Assembly: GCA_964548365.1 (NCBI GenBank)
Contig: CAZJRD010000011.1
Location: 4,425 to 68,424 of the forward strand
Length of the DNA stretch: 64,000 nt
Direction: 5' to 3'
DNA from: an uncultured Desulfobacteraceae bacterium
GTDB lineage: Bacteria; Desulfobacterota; DSM-4660; Desulfatiglandales; Desulfatiglandaceae
In this document: positions 12,203-38,241 of the stretch, one piece after another
Position numbering within the stretch: the first letter of the stretch is position 1
How the letters are laid out: each line of letters begins with the position of its first letter
Made by a program: the position numbers and the translations under genes
The notes under the pieces: generated by a model
What the model saw: the letters and a program-made list of their open reading frames with translations, nothing else
What the model was told of the DNA's origin: nothing
Databases searched by the model: none

Positions 12203-12466
12203 GTGAATCTCCCCCCGCACAGTAGCAGGCATCATGAAGCTCCCGAGAGGCGCCGGGGGAGAAAGCCCTTTTTCAAGTGACCGGTGAGAGGGCGCCGTTC
12301 TTTTCGTGACGTATCTTTGGGGGAAACCGCAGCCAGCCCGAAGGGTGGAATGCGGAGGGGGCAATGCTCCCCCGGAGATACGTCACAGAAAAGACCAGCC
12401 CGGAGCCTCGGAATGGAAAAAAGGTTTTCTCCCCGGATCCTCTATCAGAAGTGGGGGATCATCAAA
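12203..12466 (+). ncRNA. Unclassified structured repeat element, copy 1 (candidate ncRNA or REP/MITE-like element)
   Basis: Collinear with 25719-26017. Invariant blocks alternate with helices that differ in sequence but stay complementary. The G-U wobbles fit the plus strand only. Confidence 0.45.
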
Positions 12467-12511
12467 AGTAAGGCTATCAAATCGCATGAGCAATCGTGCT
12501 TTGAGAAGGAA

Positions 12512-13912
12512 TCAAAACTCTTTCTGGTTACTCCTGGCGAGACGAGTAAGCAATGTGACGGCGAACTGCTTTAAGAATTGCAATTGGATGGACTCGGAGG
12601 AACGGTCGAGCAACGTCGCACTGATGCGCATCATGATGCAATCCGATGCGGCAACCACAGTGGCGGCACGGGTCTGTCCGCTCAGGTAGGACATCTCCCC
12701 AAAACACTCTCCCCGGGTAATAACGGCGATAATATGGCCCCCTTTCTTGACCGCCGCCTTCCCGCTCAGAATGATGAAGAAAGAATCATCAATTTCTCCC
12801 TCACTCACCACGACCCTTCCTTTCCTCACCTTCACCAGGTTGCTGGCCATCAGGATCTCCTTTACCTGGTCCCTGGTGAAGTTTTCAAAAAAAGGTACAT
12901 GATGCACATAATCTACCACATCTTCCACCTTGGATTTCTTGACAACCCCCCTCAGTCCCCGGAGCGCAACTCGGAGGTCATAGGCAAAATCCATGCACGT
13001 CTGATAGCGGGCAGCGGGGTCTTTGGAAAGGGCCTTGTGGATAATCCGGTCAAATATCTCCGGAATGCCTTTCCGAATATGTGAAATAGAGATTGGCTCT
13101 TCGTGGGTGATCTTGTAGAGAATCGAAAAATAGTTGTCTCCGGAAAACGCCCGTTGTCCGGTCAGCAGCTCATACATGACACATCCGAGGGAAAAAATAT
13201 CACTCTTGTCCTCTATTGGTTCCTCTTTCACCTGCTCGGGCGACATGTAACAAGGTGATCCCACGAGCCCCCTCTCAAAAGGCACCTCTGTTTCAATATA
13301 GGCTATCCCGAAATCCGCGATCTTGATCGCACCGGTGCGGCTAACCATGATATTGGATGGTTTGACGTCACGGTGTACTACCCCATGCCGGTGTGCATAA
13401 TCAAGGGCCTTGCACGCGGCAAACATAATTTCCGCCACTTTACTGGTCGGCAGAAGATTCTCTTTACGGCAGAACTTCACCAAGGTAGGACCATCCACAT
13501 ATTCCATCGCAATATAGCAAAACTCCCGATACATACCGGCATCGTAGATTGCGATGATGTTCGGATGCATGAGCCGCCCGGCGGACTGCGCCTCGGTGAA
13601 AAACCGTTCCCGGTATTTCTCGACCTTGTATCCACCCAACTCTCCGGAAGGGCTGGAAATCTTAATGGCCACATCCCTCCGTATGAACGGATCCCTCCCG
13701 AGAAAAACCATGCCCATACTGCCCTGGCCCAGTCTATCCAGGATCTCGTAGCGTCCCACTCTCCGGATGTCGGACAACTCAGCGACAAAGGCATCATCCA
13801 CCCTCCGGGCATCTTTGTTTACCCCGAAGAATCTTGCCTTGAGCCAGCTGGTAAGACCGTGTTTCGGCTCTTCCGGGATTTCCTCTTTCCTTGCTTGTTC
13901 CATATTCCTCAC
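12512..13912 (-). CDS. Ser/Thr protein kinase with C-terminal cyclic-nucleotide-binding domain
   Basis: GQGSMGMV glycine loop, AIK lysine, HRDVKPSN catalytic loop, DFG. C-terminal cNMP fold (FFIILSGKA..GECFGEMSYL..RAATV). Start is GTG 13912 or ATG 13903. Confidence 0.88.
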   Translation of the reverse strand: MRNMEQARKEEIPEEPKHGLTSWLKARFFGVNKDARRVDDAFVAELSDIRRVGRYEILDRLGQGSMGMVFLGRDPFIRRDVAIKISSPSGELGGYKVEKYRERFFTEAQSAGRLMHPNIIAIYDAGMYREFCYIAMEYVDGPTLVKFCRKENLLPTSKVAEIMFAACKALDYAHRHGVVHRDVKPSNIMVSRTGAIKIADFGIAYIETEVPFERGLVGSPCYMSPEQVKEEPIEDKSDIFSLGCVMYELLTGQRAFSGDNYFSILYKITHEEPISISHIRKGIPEIFDRIIHKALSKDPAARYQTCMDFAYDLRVALRGLRGVVKKSKVEDVVDYVHHVPFFENFTRDQVKEILMASNLVKVRKGRVVVSEGEIDDSFFIILSGKAAVKKGGHIIAVITRGECFGEMSYLSGQTRAATVVAASDCIMMRISATLLDRSSESIQLQFLKQFAVTLLTRLARSNQKEF

Positions 13913-15586: not shown

Positions 15587-16906
15587 ATGGAAAAAACCGC
15601 CCTGGAATACATGCTGAAAAGCCCGAAAGTGCAGAGCTACCTGACCCCTATTAGACCCGGTCAGGTTCTGTTCAACGAGGGCGACTTCACCCAGGATCTC
15701 TGCGTCCTTGTATCGGGAAGGCTGGAGGTCTTCCGAGGGGATCAGAAAATGCAGGAGATCACCGAGCCGGGGGCCGTGCTCGGAAAAATCTCCTTTGTAC
15801 TCGGGAGCAGGAGAACCGCCACCGTACGGGCCATAGATGAGACGCAGGTCCTCTTGGTCCCCCAGAAGGAAGTGGGAGATTTTCTGAAGGAGTTTCCTGA
15901 AATTGCATGGGATATTCCAAGGCGCCTGGCACAGGAAGTTGATGTGGCAAGTCATGTCCTTTCCGGGATGAAAGAACTGTGCGACCACCTCCCTGATGCC
16001 TTCCTGATGAGCGACAGGGAGGGAAAAATTCTTTCCTGGAACAGGGCAGCAGAAGAGCTTTTCGGATGCGACTGGGAAGGCATGTATCAAAAACCCGCCG
16101 AAATCCTCTTCGAAGACAGAGAAGAGTTTCGTAATATCCTGGATGAGATTCTCTCAAAGGCCCCGGTCAAGGAAAGGATTCTCAGGATCAACCACCCCCG
16201 GAAAGGGATCCGTTACATCTCCACCAGTACGAACGTGCTTTCAGGCGGACACAAACAGTTTCAGGGAGTTGTTTTCCTGTGCCGGGATGTTACCGCTACC
16301 ATCACTATAGAAAAAAAGCTGCGTCGTCTCTGGCTCTGGCTCCTCCCGGCCGGATTTCTCACCATGCTTTTGGCAGCCGCTTTCCTCTGGTCCTCCCTTT
16401 TTCCCTGGAACAGGCAGGAACGGCGTGATACGGATAAGATGGAATTGCAGAGTCTTATTTCAAGGGACAGATTCCTGCTTGGCTCCTCCCTGGGGTCGGC
16501 TATGCGAGCCGGCGACCAGAGAAAGGCAATCCTGGCCTTAAATACCTTTTTTCAAAACCGCCGTGGCAAAAACGGGCTCTATGAAGGCATCGTCGTACTT
16601 GATGAGGGGAAAAAGGTCTTTGCCTCCAGGGAGGCAAACGGATCAGGAGCGGTGAGTAAAGCAGGGACGAGTTACGCGGCCATCCAATTTGAAAATATTA
16701 GCGGATCAACCCATTGCGTGCTCACCCTTTTTCGCCCTGATCCGGCCCATCCCATGGGCCGAAAAAGGGTTGATCTCGCTTTTCCCTTGAAAAGTGACGG
16801 AAAGCGAACGGGATGGCTCCTCTTCCAGATGAACATGGAAATTCTCAAAGGAAAATACGGGATTGATGAAAAGGCACTTAACCGACTGCGATTCAAGGAC
16901 CTCTAG
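15587..16906 (+). CDS. cNMP-binding plus PAS domain membrane protein without a recognisable output domain
   Basis: N-terminal cNMP fold (FNEGD..LCVLVSGRLEV..RTATVRA), a PAS segment (LPDAFLMSDREGKILSWNRAAEELFG), one TM helix (LWLWLLPAGFLTMLLAAAFLW), and an extracytoplasmic C-terminal region. Confidence 0.75.
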   Translation: MEKTALEYMLKSPKVQSYLTPIRPGQVLFNEGDFTQDLCVLVSGRLEVFRGDQKMQEITEPGAVLGKISFVLGSRRTATVRAIDETQVLLVPQKEVGDFLKEFPEIAWDIPRRLAQEVDVASHVLSGMKELCDHLPDAFLMSDREGKILSWNRAAEELFGCDWEGMYQKPAEILFEDREEFRNILDEILSKAPVKERILRINHPRKGIRYISTSTNVLSGGHKQFQGVVFLCRDVTATITIEKKLRRLWLWLLPAGFLTMLLAAAFLWSSLFPWNRQERRDTDKMELQSLISRDRFLLGSSLGSAMRAGDQRKAILALNTFFQNRRGKNGLYEGIVVLDEGKKVFASREANGSGAVSKAGTSYAAIQFENISGSTHCVLTLFRPDPAHPMGRKRVDLAFPLKSDGKRTGWLLFQMNMEILKGKYGIDEKALNRLRFKDL

Positions 16907-17124
16907 CCCGGGTTTCTCACCGATCTTCGTCGCGAGACGGTGGAGAGTCCCATGAATAGCAAGTTGAGCTTGCGAAATCCCGCTATCGGGAGCGCGTGCA
17001 GGAAAATGGCCGCAGGCATACTTGGAGTACGTCGAGGTCATTTTTCAAGCGCAACGCAGTAGGCATGGGGCTATCCGCCATCGTAGTCCCGCGCTTCGCG
17101 GGATTGGTGAGAAATCCGGGCTAA
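16904..17124. repeat. 220-bp long imperfect hairpin with 23-nt terminal inverted repeats (REPIN/MITE-like)
   Basis: tagcccgggtttctcaccgatc (16904-16925) matches the reverse complement of gattggtgagaaatccgggcta (17103-17124) with 2 mismatches. Pairing continues inward (acggtggagagtcccatg / catggggctatccgccat). Confidence 0.6.
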
Positions 17125-21183: not shown

Positions 21184-21612
21184 TCACCCATGAATAGCTT
21201 CTCCTGGAGCAGGTCTAGCTGAATTTTCCGGGGCGTGCACCATTCGCTTTAACGAAGCCTCAAGAGCACTGGAAGTGAAAGGCTTTCGTATAAAATCGCG
21301 GATACCTATCCCCCGAGCCCTGGTAATAACATCTTCGTTTCCATACGCGGTCACCAGGATCCTCTTTGCCTTTGGGCAAATCCCTCGAATTAACCGAAGA
21401 AATTCCAGCCCGTCCATGCCTGACAGCCGATAATCCGTTATGACAATATCGAATTCCTGCCCCTTTACGGCCTCCATCCCTTCCTCTGCGGTCTCCAGGG
21501 CAAGAATATGGCATCCCTCTTCCTCGAAGTATAACCCCAGTGAATGCCTGATCCACTCATCATCATCGACGAGTAATACTCTTAAATTTTTCAACTCAGA
21601 GAAAAAGTCCAT
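21184..21612 (-). CDS. Stand-alone response-regulator receiver protein
   Basis: VLLVDDD, phospho-acceptor context VITDYRLSGMDG, conserved Lys in IRKPF. Start moved to ATG 21612 because a sigma54 promoter lies inside the longer ORF. Confidence 0.85.
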   Translation of the reverse strand: MDFFSELKNLRVLLVDDDEWIRHSLGLYFEEEGCHILALETAEEGMEAVKGQEFDIVITDYRLSGMDGLEFLRLIRGICPKAKRILVTAYGNEDVITRARGIGIRDFIRKPFTSSALEASLKRMVHAPENSARPAPGEAIHG

Positions 21613-21828
21613 CTCGCTGGTTTCTGGTAAGGTGGAATCTGCAATCTCAGTTAATTTTTTCAAACAACTCCCTACCAAACTTGATTTAGCATAAAATATG
21701 CCACCTTCATTTCGGAGGCTAATAACCATAAATACAAGGAGTTATATGAGCTGAGCTGACAGACAGGGCGGGTTAGAGGAGAGGAATTTCGAGAAATTCC
21801 AAAACGTCTTTTCCCAAAATTGAGAAAC
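21548..21828 (-). repeat. Promoter plus receiver-5'-end module, copy A (direct repeat of 37924-38192)
   Basis: Collinear similarity to 37924-38192. It covers the first 21 receiver codons, the -24/-12 promoter, tandem GAGAAATTC-type decamers, and CTTTTCCCAAAATTGAGAAA. Confidence 0.85.
21688..21703 (-). promoter_or_regulatory. Sigma54 -24/-12 promoter (receiver operon)
   Basis: Minus strand TGGCATATTTTATGCT, with GG and GC at the consensus spacing of TGGCAC-N5-TTGCW. About 65-nt leader to the ATG at 21612. Confidence 0.7.
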
Positions 21829-24423: not shown

Positions 24424-25698
24424 CTATTCCACAAGGCCACACCAGCGCGATATGAAGAGGGCATATGCTTTCGCAACATGGACGATGCTCTCAATATTGA
24501 CCCGCTCGTTTGCCGCATGGATGTTTTCGGCCACCGGTCCGTAGCAGGTGGCTTGGCCGGACCCGAACAGGGTGAAGACCCTGAGATCCGTCGTACAAGT
24601 GGCGATATATTCCCTCGCATCCTCCCCTGTGAGCGCCCTGTGGCATGCATTCAGGGCAGAAAAAGCAGGGAGGTCAAGAGCCAGGCTGTGACCCTCGGAC
24701 CGGAATCCATAAAAATCGATCAGGGGCGGGTTCTCTGAAAGCCAGGGGTCTCTTTTCGCGGCGTTCTCTACGGTCTCGATAATGCGCGCACAAATTTGCT
24801 CATAGGAGACGCCCGGGAAAAAAGAAAGCCTGCCATGGAATTCGGCGGTGGCCGGAACGGTGGAGGGCCAGTCACCCCCTTTGAAGATCCCGATATTCAG
24901 GTTCAGGGGATGCACCATGTCTTGATACTCGGGTGGGACATCAGAGAGGTTGAGTTCCGCTTCCAGTTGTCGCAGCGCATCGATAACATGATAACTTTTT
25001 TCAATGGCATTGGTACCCGATCGCGCGGACTGCACGTGAACCGGGACACCCCGGACGGAGACCTTGAACCAGAGGACCCCCAACTGGGCGGTGAGAATGG
25101 TAGGCCCGAAGGGTTCCGGGATCAGTACAGCCTCGGCGTCGTATCCGGCTTCCAGGCACGCCAGGGCCCCGTTCCCGCAGCATTCCTCTTCTATCACCGC
25201 TTCAATGCTTACAGGTGCTTTCAATCCGAATCCCGCCTTTTCCACGGCGTGGACTGCATAGGTCATGGCCGCAACACCTGATTTCATATCCCCTGATCCG
25301 CGGCCATACAGCCAGCCGTTATTGACTATCGGGTCAAAAGGATCGTCACTCCAGAATTCCAGGGGTTCAGGGCTCACCACATCCAGGTGTCCGTTGAAAA
25401 GAAGACTATGTCCTCCCTCCGCATCCGCTTCCCGGACCGCCACCACGTTCTTGCGGCCTTCATATCCCCAAGGCACCGGTGCAAATCCCGGATGTCCCGC
25501 AAGCGTTGCCGGGACAATGGGAACGGTGACCGGTTGAAAGGAAAGCCTTTTGAATTCTTCCTCTGCCACCTTTACGGCCGATGCCTCGTTCCCGAGGGTG
25601 CTGGGTTCCCGTACCAGCCTACAGGCGTAGTCGAGCAGGTCGTCAGACAGGTGATCTACTGTCTCTATCAGCTTTTTTTCCTGTTTATTCTCCAGCAT
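24424..25698 (-). CDS. M20 peptidase, ArgE/DapE-type deacylase
   Basis: 424 aa. HLDVVS, GRGSGDMKSG, EEECCGNG motifs. Confidence 0.85.
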   Translation of the reverse strand: MLENKQEKKLIETVDHLSDDLLDYACRLVREPSTLGNEASAVKVAEEEFKRLSFQPVTVPIVPATLAGHPGFAPVPWGYEGRKNVVAVREADAEGGHSLLFNGHLDVVSPEPLEFWSDDPFDPIVNNGWLYGRGSGDMKSGVAAMTYAVHAVEKAGFGLKAPVSIEAVIEEECCGNGALACLEAGYDAEAVLIPEPFGPTILTAQLGVLWFKVSVRGVPVHVQSARSGTNAIEKSYHVIDALRQLEAELNLSDVPPEYQDMVHPLNLNIGIFKGGDWPSTVPATAEFHGRLSFFPGVSYEQICARIIETVENAAKRDPWLSENPPLIDFYGFRSEGHSLALDLPAFSALNACHRALTGEDAREYIATCTTDLRVFTLFGSGQATCYGPVAENIHAANERVNIESIVHVAKAYALFISRWCGLVE

Positions 25699-25718
25699 AC
25701 GCTGTCTCTCCCTTCGGA

Positions 25719-26017
25719 CTGAATCTCCCGCCCTCCTATGTGCTACCGCCCAGGGAGGAAGCCTTTTCTTAAGTGACTGGTGAGAGGGTGCCGTCTTTTC
25801 GTGACTTACCAGTGGGGGAACCCGCAGCTCGACGAAGTCGAGAATGCGGAGGGGGTATAGCTATCCCACGCTGGTAAGTCGCAGAAAAGACCAGCCCGGA
25901 GCCTCGAAACGCTAGAAAAGGCTCCCTTCTTGGGCGTCAACCTTCAACTGATCTCACTATTCCAGATCCCGGATGACAGAGGCTGTCCGGGTCCGCCGCC
26001 AGAGGTGGGGGATTCAG
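25719..26017 (+). ncRNA. Unclassified structured repeat element, copy 2
   Basis: Homolog of 12203-12466 with compensatory helix changes. It fills the whole gap between the CoA-transferase B stop and the M20 peptidase start. Confidence 0.45.
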
Positions 26018-26023
26018 TTATAC

Positions 26024-26725
26024 TTAGAATCGGGGAAGGTCTTGTTGCGGGACGACCAGCGGCGCCTCCGTCTTTCGAATCACTTCATCCAGATCCACAC
26101 CCTCGGCGATTTCCCGCAGCACCAACCCCTCCGGCGTCACGTCGATCACGGCAAGTTCGGTGATGATGGTGTCTACGCACCCTTTGGCAGTGAGTGGCAA
26201 TGTACATTCCCTGAGTATTTTCGGGCGTCCATTTCGATCGGTGTGGGTTGAGGTGACAATCAGCCTCCTGGATTTTTGGGCCAGTTCCATGCCCCCTCCA
26301 ATACCGGGAGAAAATTTCCCTGGAATGATCCAGTTGGCCAAATCACCGCTTTCGGACACCTCCAGGGTACCCAGAAAGGCCAGATCCAGACGCCCACCCC
26401 GGACGAGTGCGAATGACAACGCACTGTCGAAAAAAGAGGCCTCTTTCATCAATGAAACATAGTTCCCCCCGGCGTCGATGAGGTTGCGGTCCTCTGTTCC
26501 GGGCCGGCACCTCGGACCCATGCCTAGGATCCCGTTCTCCGAGTGGATAAAAACGGGTTTGTCGTCGGGGAGGTACTTGGGGATGAGGGTCGGGATACCG
26601 ATCCCCAGGTTTATGACCTGTCCCGCCGCTATTTCCTCTGCCGCACGCTGTGCGATCTTCTCTTTATAGGGCGTGATGTTCCAGTACCCCGTATTCGGAT
26701 GTGATCTCTTCCATGACCACCACAT
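26024..26725 (-). CDS. 3-oxoacid CoA-transferase subunit B
   Basis: INLGIGIP and SENG (IHSENGILG) motifs. Homology starts near 26677, but the nearest canonical start is ATG 26725, which overlaps subunit A by 62 nt. The start is therefore uncertain. Confidence 0.85.
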   Translation of the reverse strand: MWWSWKRSHPNTGYWNITPYKEKIAQRAAEEIAAGQVINLGIGIPTLIPKYLPDDKPVFIHSENGILGMGPRCRPGTEDRNLIDAGGNYVSLMKEASFFDSALSFALVRGGRLDLAFLGTLEVSESGDLANWIIPGKFSPGIGGGMELAQKSRRLIVTSTHTDRNGRPKILRECTLPLTAKGCVDTIITELAVIDVTPEGLVLREIAEGVDLDEVIRKTEAPLVVPQQDLPRF

Positions 26726-27359
26726 GGTCCACGAAGGCGCCGGGCGTGTGCACATGCTCGGGGTCCAGGTCACCCGTGTCCACGATCGCTTCAACTTCCG
26801 CGATCACAGTGTCTGCCGCAGTAGCCATGAGAGGATTGAAATTCCGCGCGCTCTTCTGATAGACCAGGTTCCCAAAATCGTCTGCCATGAAGGCATGGAT
26901 GAAGGCCACATCCGCTCTCAAGGCCGGTTCAACAAGGGCCCGTTGTCCCTCGATCTCAATACACTGTTTCTCATTTTCAAGAATCGTGTCCAGGCCGATA
27001 TCCGTCAGGATACCCATCAGGCCCGCCCCGCCGGCCCTGATTTTCTCGGCCAGGATACCCTGGGGGTAAAACTCCACATCGATTTCATTGCGGTTCATCA
27101 TGCCGATGACCGTCGCGTTCAGGCCCAGGTGTGAGCAGATCAGCTTTCGTGCCCGTCCCGCCTCAATGAGCCTGGAAAGTCCCATCCCGTCTTCATTGGC
27201 CTCATTTTTAATCAAGGTCAACCCCCGCGTTCCCTTTCCCAGGAGTCCGTTGATGAGGGTAAAGGGCGTACCCGGGACACCAAATCCGCCGACCATAACG
27301 CGATCGCCGTCGCGGACACGTTCGAGTGCCTTTTCAATAGATGTACGCTTATCAATCAC
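26664..27359 (-). CDS. 3-oxoacid CoA-transferase subunit A
   Basis: 231 aa. VMVGGFGVPGTP motif. GTG start. Confidence 0.88.
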   Translation of the reverse strand: MIDKRTSIEKALERVRDGDRVMVGGFGVPGTPFTLINGLLGKGTRGLTLIKNEANEDGMGLSRLIEAGRARKLICSHLGLNATVIGMMNRNEIDVEFYPQGILAEKIRAGGAGLMGILTDIGLDTILENEKQCIEIEGQRALVEPALRADVAFIHAFMADDFGNLVYQKSARNFNPLMATAADTVIAEVEAIVDTGDLDPEHVHTPGAFVDHVVVMEEITSEYGVLEHHAL

Positions 27360-37901: not shown

Positions 37902-37988
37902 CTTACACCTGACATGAGGAAAGTCTGATCCATTCGTCATCATCGACGAGTAATACTCTGAGATTTTTCAATTCAGAAAAAAGGTCCA
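37902..37988 (-). pseudogene. 28-codon stub of a receiver gene (MDLFSELKNLRVLLVDDDEWIRLSSCQV*) 30 nt upstream of the methyltransferase
   Basis: The first 22 codons parallel the receiver at 21612 (MDFFSELKNLRVLLVDDDEWIR). The frame then diverges and stops. Confidence 0.7.
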
Positions 37989-38192
37989 TCTCGATAAACT
38001 TCACCACAGCAGAGTCTATACTGTCAATTGATCTTTTGAAACAGATCTCTGCTAATACCATTAAGCATGAAATAAGCCACCTTCATTTCGGAGGTTAATA
38101 AGCGTAAATACAAGGAGTTATGCGAGGAATAGACCGGGTTAAAGGCGAGAAAATTCGAGAAAATTCAAATCATCTTTTCCCAAAATTGAGAA
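37924..38192 (-). repeat. Promoter plus receiver-5'-end module, copy B
   Basis: Direct repeat of 21548-21828, 16.4 kb away. Confidence 0.85.
38064..38079 (-). promoter_or_regulatory. Sigma54 -24/-12 promoter (stub ORF / methyltransferase)
   Basis: Minus strand TGGCTTATTTCATGCT with correct GG-N10-GC spacing. Confidence 0.6.
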
Positions 38193-38241
38193 AGAGAGGA
38201 AAAGACCCGACCGGGAGATGCAGGACCAATAAGTTGTTTCT

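Follow-up and report, generated by a model that had tools for sequence, protein, structure and literature searches.

A multicopy intergenic repeat of Desulfobacterota with a strand-specific folded core occupies a catabolic operon of an uncultured Desulfobacteraceae bacterium

The DNA inserted at positions 25719-26023 of the window, which is the whole 64,000-nt stretch of DNA that was analyzed, is probably one copy of a non-coding, non-autonomous and multicopy intergenic repeat of Desulfobacterota, which consists of a core in a shell and would be moved mostly by ISL3. This insert, hereafter copy 2, is a dispersed mobile repeat of the MITE/ERIC/Correia kind and not a locus-specific regulator. 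The 325-nt gap that it fills in a catabolic operon needs no regulatory explanation, as it is a transposon scar without counterpart in some sister species. The repeat has two layers: an inner folded core of ~185 nt and an outer shell that supplies the terminal inverted repeats.

The insert between the CoA-transferase and M20 peptidase genes

Copy 2 lies between two minus-strand ORFs that are 325 nt apart: the M20 peptidase gene (24424-25698; Pfam Peptidase_M20, 1.8e-26), which is downstream in the operon, and a CoA-transferase subunit gene (26024-26794; Pfam CoA_trans, 1.4e-38), which is upstream. Because the corresponding junctions are empty in relatives such as G013, the insert can be delimited to ~25719/25720-26023, where an S1-type shell and its core are read on the plus strand against the gaps of relatives G013, G001 and G005. 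The M20 ribosome-binding site GGGAGAG (25706-25712, minus strand), 8 nt upstream of the ATG, is intact just outside the insert and aligns with TCTCC in the empty-site relatives. On the plus strand, the sequence of the insert contains a left S1 terminal inverted repeat, CTGAATCTCCCGCCCTCC (25719-25736), a right one, AGAGGTGGGGGATTCAG (26001-26017), which was also recognized in other S1 copies, and the S1 shell hairpin CCCGGA-N12-TCCGGG (25968-25991), which recurs in other S1 shells and in the remnant found in relative G002. The first-pass annotation listed the terminal repeat and the hairpin as extra features of copy 2; both are indeed present, but neither is peculiar to copy 2, as they are features of the S1 shell in other copies and genomes. 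Its description of the gap, of the long helix formed by 25795-25817 and 25865-25889 and of the T.G wobbles at 25802/25881 and 25813/25870 proved accurate in all points. Copy 1, the other element in the window, is also of the S1 type (12203-12466, plus strand, with the core at 12253-12435), matches the core model with 170 bits and shows 76% mean column identity to copy 2.

Folded as RNA, the plus strand of 25700-26030 reaches -152.2 kcal/mol (z = -6.7; matched by none of 100 shuffles) and the minus strand -132.6 kcal/mol (z = -3.2), and the fold strength at copy 2 exceeds chance. Scanning of both strands of 25600-26150 found neither a sigma-70-like promoter nor an intrinsic terminator with a G+C-rich hairpin and a U run (0 sites on either strand). 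A coding role of the copies was rejected, as their ORFs (12284-12574, 25930-26163 and others) are not conserved and length changes in hairpin P4 shift the frame. As a separate observation, the catabolic island holding copy 2 is bracketed by three collinear direct-repeat blocks (21542-21827 and 37919-38193) that are 86-88% identical and 16.4 kb apart.

Copy number, range and placement of the family

The two copies known from the window are part of a family of ~65 copies in the genome. In this 3.69-Mb genome of 126 contigs, copy 2 has 53 BLAST matches and, as a query of nhmmer, 69 matches, while a profile of the core gives 73 non-overlapping matches, 42 of which are near full length. Many copies are at contig ends, where a repeat that breaks assemblies is expected. 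Beyond this genome, a 27-nt core pattern occurs in more than 113 stretches of assembled genomes labelled Desulfobacteraceae, Desulfobacterales or Deltaproteobacteria. Searches of the same family with the covariance model R1 detected the core in 41 of 105 genomes, or 25 of 45 genera. When the search was extended to a sample drawn evenly from the phylum, five further families also proved to have it.

The family is undescribed, as judged by Rfam and the literature. The window has no match in Rfam 15 at gathering thresholds; at permissive settings, copy 2 yields only chance-level matches (E > 3) and three other variants yield none that are relevant. No match to the element was found in the plasmid and phage collections searched, and a full-text literature search brought up no paper that describes such an element for this bacterial group. 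A cobalamin riboswitch (L014 1814-2106; 65.4 bits, E = 1.3e-14), which is unrelated to the family, is ~135 nt from the core copy at C5:110200-110400, on the opposite strand. In uncultured sulfate reducers a genome can hold tens of copies of the family, at which the assembly breaks into many contig ends. The calling of intergenic "RNA motifs" in such genomes should include a step that masks or annotates the family.

All scored copies in the own genome are intergenic. Genes were called simply as longest ORFs, which together cover 88% of the genome. On this basis, the spacers of the 47 copies with two neighbors are co-directional in 28 cases, divergent in 10 and convergent in 9, for which the genome baseline predicts 30.2, 9.4 and 7.4, respectively (chi-square p = 0.77). 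Within co-directional spacers, 12 copies are in sense and 16 in antisense orientation (p = 0.57). The preference for 5' UTRs that had been suggested from the two window copies is therefore not found: both copies are antisense near a start codon, which is not a property of the family because no preference in placement or orientation exists genome-wide.

Orthologous junctions and other loci in relatives

The orthologous CoA-transferase/M20 junction was located in six relatives (G013, G001, G005, G004, G002 and G003). Only 20-45 nt separate the two genes in G013, G001 and G005, and the empty junction of G013 reads ...TTTGGAC|TAAAATCGGGG, with TCTCCATTTGGAC as its upstream part. The junction of G004 has the same left motif (CGAATCTCCCGC) and a reverse-complemented core, which is ~93% identical to that of copy 2 over the central ~150 nt in an alignment read by eye and 85% identical when the full alignment is counted; both have 2-3 additional nt in the P4 loop. 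The sequences suggest that copy 2 and its counterpart in G004 stem from one ancestral insertion that was followed by an inversion. In G002 the core is missing, and what remains of the shell is its left end plus the half on the right, which includes the CCGGA...TCCGG hairpin; G003 has the left end followed by a different filler that holds degenerate ISL3-type ends.

Other loci likewise include empty sites, one-armed remnants and, at the locus on contig C49, a core that is flipped in G002. Two insertions of ~300-320 nt (contig C92 at 3469 and contig C3 at 5198) are specific to the own genome and their sites are empty in four relatives, and G001 has a much shorter spacer at the position of copy 1. 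Exact insertion boundaries were sought for three more copies (contigs C10, C16 and C49), but the spacers of the relatives are too diverged to align there. The own genome also contains three truncated S1-type copies (C29:4753-4950, C94:6060-6179 and C34:12447-12505) that keep the right shell arm and at most the last 40-60 nt of the core, and all three are truncated on the same side.

These loci bear on the proposal of the first-pass annotation that copy 2 is a cis-antisense regulator or a dedicated RNA-stability element for the M20 peptidase, as copy 1 would be for rimO. Both window copies are near a minus-strand start codon with their stable strand in antisense, and copy 2 is directly upstream of the M20 ribosome-binding site. 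We nevertheless regard this proposal as highly improbable, because the insert is missing from the junction in three relatives, inverted in a fourth and reduced by deletion to a remnant in a fifth, because the ~65 copies behave as a generic repeat scattered without positional or orientation preference, and because no plus-strand promoter was found in the scan at copy 2. The other option raised at first reading, a structured mobile repeat, is borne out by the 73 core matches, by presence and absence at orthologous loci and by ISL3-type ends with 8-bp duplications.

For copy 2 as a mobile repeat, we propose that the insertion would have arisen within the genus and landed after the CoA-transferase stop codon and ahead of the M20 ribosome-binding site. 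The insert would thereafter have been passive DNA that was flipped in one sister species, probably via recombination of its inverted arms with each other, trimmed to one arm in a second and, in a third, left beside a further ISL3-type insertion. The flips could also be read as those of an inverton, in which a site-specific recombinase inverts the core as a DNA switch for phase-variable expression of neighbor genes. Inverted arms do bound the core, opposite orientations are found at two orthologous loci (copy 2 against G004 and the C49 locus against G002) as well as within each shell type, and inversion of Correia elements is on record (PMC10969869). This switch is very unlikely: no promoter was detected in the element, the arm sequences differ between copies, so that there is no common recombinase site, and long inverted repeats can recombine and thereby account for the flips with no need of an enzyme.

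The CoA-transferase gene itself deserves a remark. Its orthologue in G013 (L145, G013:C220; orthologue of window 26018-26800), a member of a different genus, is 88% identical at the DNA level, and those of same-genus relatives are only 78-82% identical. The catabolic island may thus have been transferred laterally, or the pattern may reflect a binning error.

A conserved and strand-specific core

The core of copy 2 with its inner arms (25749-25930, plus strand) scores 169.7 bits with covariance model R1 on the plus strand and 40.2 bits on the minus strand. With ~185 nt, the core is a long imperfect rod that ends in a three-way junction. The long helix P2 is formed by 25795-25817 and 25865-25889 in the MFE fold, and in alignment A4, where it is helix 5, it comprises 22 pairs with 97.3% of cells paired and 9 pairs with compensatory change. 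It leads into the junction sequence GGGGGAA (25814-25820), which is nearly invariant across the phylum, followed by helix P3 (CCGCA/TGCGG; 25822-25849), which surrounds the variable tip hairpin CTCGAC-GAA-GTCGAG (P3a), and by the hairpin P4 region (GGGGGTATAGCTATCCCAC; 25851-25869), which was delimited in the alignments and differs in length between copies. P3 itself shows a compensatory change in G033, and both tip hairpins, P3a and P4, exist in several lengths among copies. The long variant of P4 (CCCGCCTATAG...CTATAGGCGGG) was considered as an independent REP inserted in the core and rejected, as it occurs only inside cores.

The pairing is supported by several alignments, in which copies share ancestry and which were fitted to the model, so that their statistics are to be read with this caveat. 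RNAalifold predicts 51 pairs from 39 copies of the own genome, 23 of them with compensatory change. With 53 copies from several genomes, 96.6% of cells are paired and 24 pairs have changes on both sides, which is reached by 0 of 500 shuffles; when the partners are slid by 1-3 columns, only 41-52% of cells are paired. In 26 sequences from several families, 93% of cells are paired and 38 of 51 pairs are compensatory, and the covariation score is 0.536 vs. 0.19 for shuffles and at most 0.10 for slid partners. In the most distant members the whole sequence of the long helix is replaced, while the junction bases GGGGGAA, GGAGGGGGCAA and CCAGCCCG.GAG are nearly invariant.

The two strands of the core are not equivalent. 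Folding favors the plus strand by ~12 kcal/mol in 85 of 87 distinct copies, the core model yields 150-210 bits on the sense strand vs. 35-50 bits on the antisense strand, and paired columns contain 279 G.U vs. 43 A.C cells (158 vs. 43 without two near-fixed G.U pairs). This polarity indicates that the core is selected as single-stranded RNA or DNA, as a DNA palindrome that lacks a single-strand function should show no such bias. The core is a real, strand-specific structure. An invariant junction combined with replaced helices, in several shells and in both orientations, is not what a plain decayed transposon predicts and points to a function of the core.

What this function might be is a matter of weighing. 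The core may be a functional structured RNA (a ribozyme or a protein-binding or guide-like RNA) that is expressed from many copies, with the shells as mere vehicles. The conserved junction bases beside fully covarying helices across several families, the preference of G.U over A.C together with the more stable plus strand, peripheral hairpins (P3a and P4) that vary in length as in many functional RNAs, and the single copy kept among housekeeping genes in some genomes all agree with such an RNA. We consider it possible but rather unlikely, given that the promoter and terminator scan at copy 2 was negative, that orientation relative to neighbor genes is random, so that read-through would yield only antisense transcripts from about half of the copies, and that the core flips between orthologous loci while copies decay to one-armed remnants. 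Nor is there an Rfam match or an associated protein gene: near the single-copy cores of four genomes, the search for a protein partner found only unrelated housekeeping genes.

A broader suggestion, which we offer tentatively and with some doubt, is that the core represents a new class of strand-specific structured RNA or single-stranded DNA across Desulfobacterota, which is captured repeatedly by unrelated shells or inserts itself into palindrome centers, and whose junction bases are biochemically functional. The function of the junction could then be, for example, self-cleavage, recruitment of a host protein or help in transposition, and the family would be nearer to HEARO-type mobile RNAs than to junk repeats. 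If the travel of the core in unrelated shells does reflect function, the core would be a rare structured non-coding cargo of bacterial MITEs and a tractable model of cargo acquisition.

Strand-specific pairing would also be expected of folded single-stranded DNA moved by an HUH/Y1 transposase, as in REPIN-RAYT or in palindrome derivatives of IS200/IS605. The S1 ends without target duplication and six Y1_Tnp matches in the own genome fit this idea, and when core orientation was compared with GC skew and gene-strand bias, the sense strand was on the C-rich strand in 29 vs. 15 copies, which is no more than a weak trend (p = 0.065) that is not significant. We judge Y1-mediated movement improbable: all six Y1 genes are more than 4 kb away from any copy and three of them are interrupted by stop codons, the element has 185-300 nt and is not a 20-40-nt palindrome, and most copies use ISL3-type double-strand ends with 8-bp duplications. 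The three interrupted Y1_Tnp (IS200/IS605-type) matches are C5:50477-50836, C1:134252-134581 and C36:20-313; each has an in-frame stop codon, and they may be decayed.

Shells and mobilization

At least three unrelated shells contain the core, and each of them contains it in both orientations. Most copies in the own genome, approximately 40, end in GGTTCATCCGGATCTTGCGTACTTT ... AAAGTACGCTTTAGTCGGATGAACC and are flanked by 8-bp A+T-rich direct repeats, which include ATTATTTT, AAAAATAA, TAAATGAG, AAAAATAT, CTTATTTT and TTTTATGA; ~100-nt internal-deletion derivatives of these copies exist. The pattern of these ends occurs in 34 of the 105 genomes of the family vs. 0 for the reversed control. In G084, identical ends bracket an intact 1.3-kb ISL3 element with an 8-bp duplication, TACTTTCT. 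Its transposase has 422 aa with the domains DDE_Tnp_ISL3 (1.4e-72), HTH_Tnp_ISL3 and Zn_ribbon_ISL3, and the stop codon of the transposase is inside the right end. Because of the identical ends and the 8-bp duplications, these copies are ISL3-derived miniature elements. We infer from the sequences that they would be classical miniature inverted-repeat elements, with a shell of two ISL3 ends, that an ISL3 transposase would move in trans. The own genome, which is 95.6% complete, yielded 0 matches to PF01610 and nothing in tblastn with the transposase of G084, so that its ISL3-type copies have no resident partner at present in the assembly; insertion sequences are often lost from binned genomes.

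Derivation of the core from ISL3 was rejected, as the ISL3 loci L151-L155, the intact element included, give no match to the core profile. The ISL3 end pattern is missing from 28 of the 41 genomes that bear the core. Two of the ISL3 loci are of interest in their own right. In L155 (G048:C61:41750-42480), ISL3-type ends ~480 nt apart enclose a small ORF and no structured core; the ORF presumably encodes a GIY-YIG-type nuclease domain, by its looks. Since an ORF is located between ISL3-type ends there, the same shell carries other cargo in other genomes. L154 (G061:C23:250900-251500) is a deleted ISL3 that keeps the first ~40 and the last ~50 transposase codons between intact ends, and by its sequence it looks like a MITE in the making.

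The S1 shell is that of copy 2, copy 1 and about nine other copies in the own genome, where a profile of its right arm matches 9 places. Its ends (CTGAATCTCCCCC...GGGGGATTCAG; the left end of copy 2 is CTGAATCTCCC) differ from those of ISL3. The left part reads (C/G)TGAATCTCCCCCCGCACAG...GCTCAGGGAGG and the right part CCTCCCTGAGCGTCGGGATTCATCTGA...CCCGGATCGG.AGAGCCTATCCGGGTCC.CCACCAGAGGTGGGGGATTCAG, and the hairpin is conserved in other S1 shells as CCCGGATCGG.AGA.C.ATCCGGG. The left motif (GTGAATCTCCCCCC and similar) is found in copy 1, on contigs C107 and C79, at C5:113930 and in loci L064 and L054 of other assembled genomes. The AUK-labelled assembled genomes have the core inside a third shell (GTAACAGCTCAATAA...TTATTGAGGTGATAC).

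Comparison of the flanks of copy 2, CTTCGGAC and TTAGAATC, with the empty site of G013 identified no target duplication; a former 8-bp duplication may have decayed. The search for an autonomous element with S1 ends found none. Mobilization of the S1 shell is therefore putative. Copy 2 is short and non-coding and has terminal inverted repeats, dispersed copies and presence and absence at orthologous sites, as MITEs in general do; matching ISL3 ends and an 8-bp duplication, which would make it an ISL3-derived MITE, are not found at copy 2.

Comparison with known repeats and consequences for the operon

With ISL3-derived MITEs the family shares a length of 270-330 nt and a non-coding, multicopy and intergenic nature as well as, in the majority of copies, ISL3 ends, 8-bp duplications and internal deletions. 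It differs in that the interior is an unrelated, conserved and structured cargo and not the remnant of a transposase gene, that different shells, and genomes that lack these ends, contain the cargo as well, and that copy 2 has no ISL3 ends.

ERIC, or intergenic repeat units, of enterobacteria are likewise long imperfect intergenic palindromes in either orientation that are highly conserved over a broad taxonomic range and differ widely in copy number from one genome to the next. Wilson and Sharp reportedly argued in 2006 for RNA-level constraint on ERIC. The repeats described here have no sequence similarity to ERIC and belong to another phylum, and their core is longer (185 vs. 127 nt), has a three-way junction and is inside transposon shells.

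Correia (NEMIS) elements of Neisseria are also multicopy, have terminal inverted repeats and are often just upstream of genes. They duplicate TA, whereas the duplication found here is 8 bp in the ISL3 type and none is visible in the S1 type. Correia elements also carry promoters and an IHF site, whereas no promoter was found here.

The REP, BIME and REPIN-RAYT systems resemble the family in being intergenic, palindromic and multicopy mosaics of modules for which strand-specific single-strand folding is plausible. However, the unit described here is 5-10 times longer (185-300 vs. 20-40 nt), no Y1 gene is flanked by copies and most copies have DDE-type ends with target duplications.

The known systems also indicate what an insert of this kind could do to its host operon. 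Correia elements form an mRNA hairpin that is cleaved by RNase III and can invert in place, and effects of ERIC on host mRNA stability are reported (PMC10969869). Read-through of the operon would put the reverse complement of copy 2, a weaker long hairpin, into the mRNA, where it could set mRNA cleavage or stability as reported for Correia and ERIC. The insert would also remove translational coupling between the CoA-transferase and M20 genes while keeping the M20 ribosome-binding site. Any such effect on the operon would be a by-product and not the reason for the existence of the element.

Other repeats

Two further repeat families were encountered during the analysis. The window contains at 16904-17124 a different, 220-nt foldback element with the ends TAGCCCGGGTTTCTCACC...GGTGAGAAATCCGGGCTA, which belongs to a second abundant MITE-like family; nhmmer gives 74 matches over both strands of the own genome, that is, ~37 copies. 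A repeat of ~90 nt at C5:19295-19389 (TCTCGGCAGTGAACCGGCATATTCC...) represents a third family, with 32 matches in the own genome and dozens in each of G001-G005.
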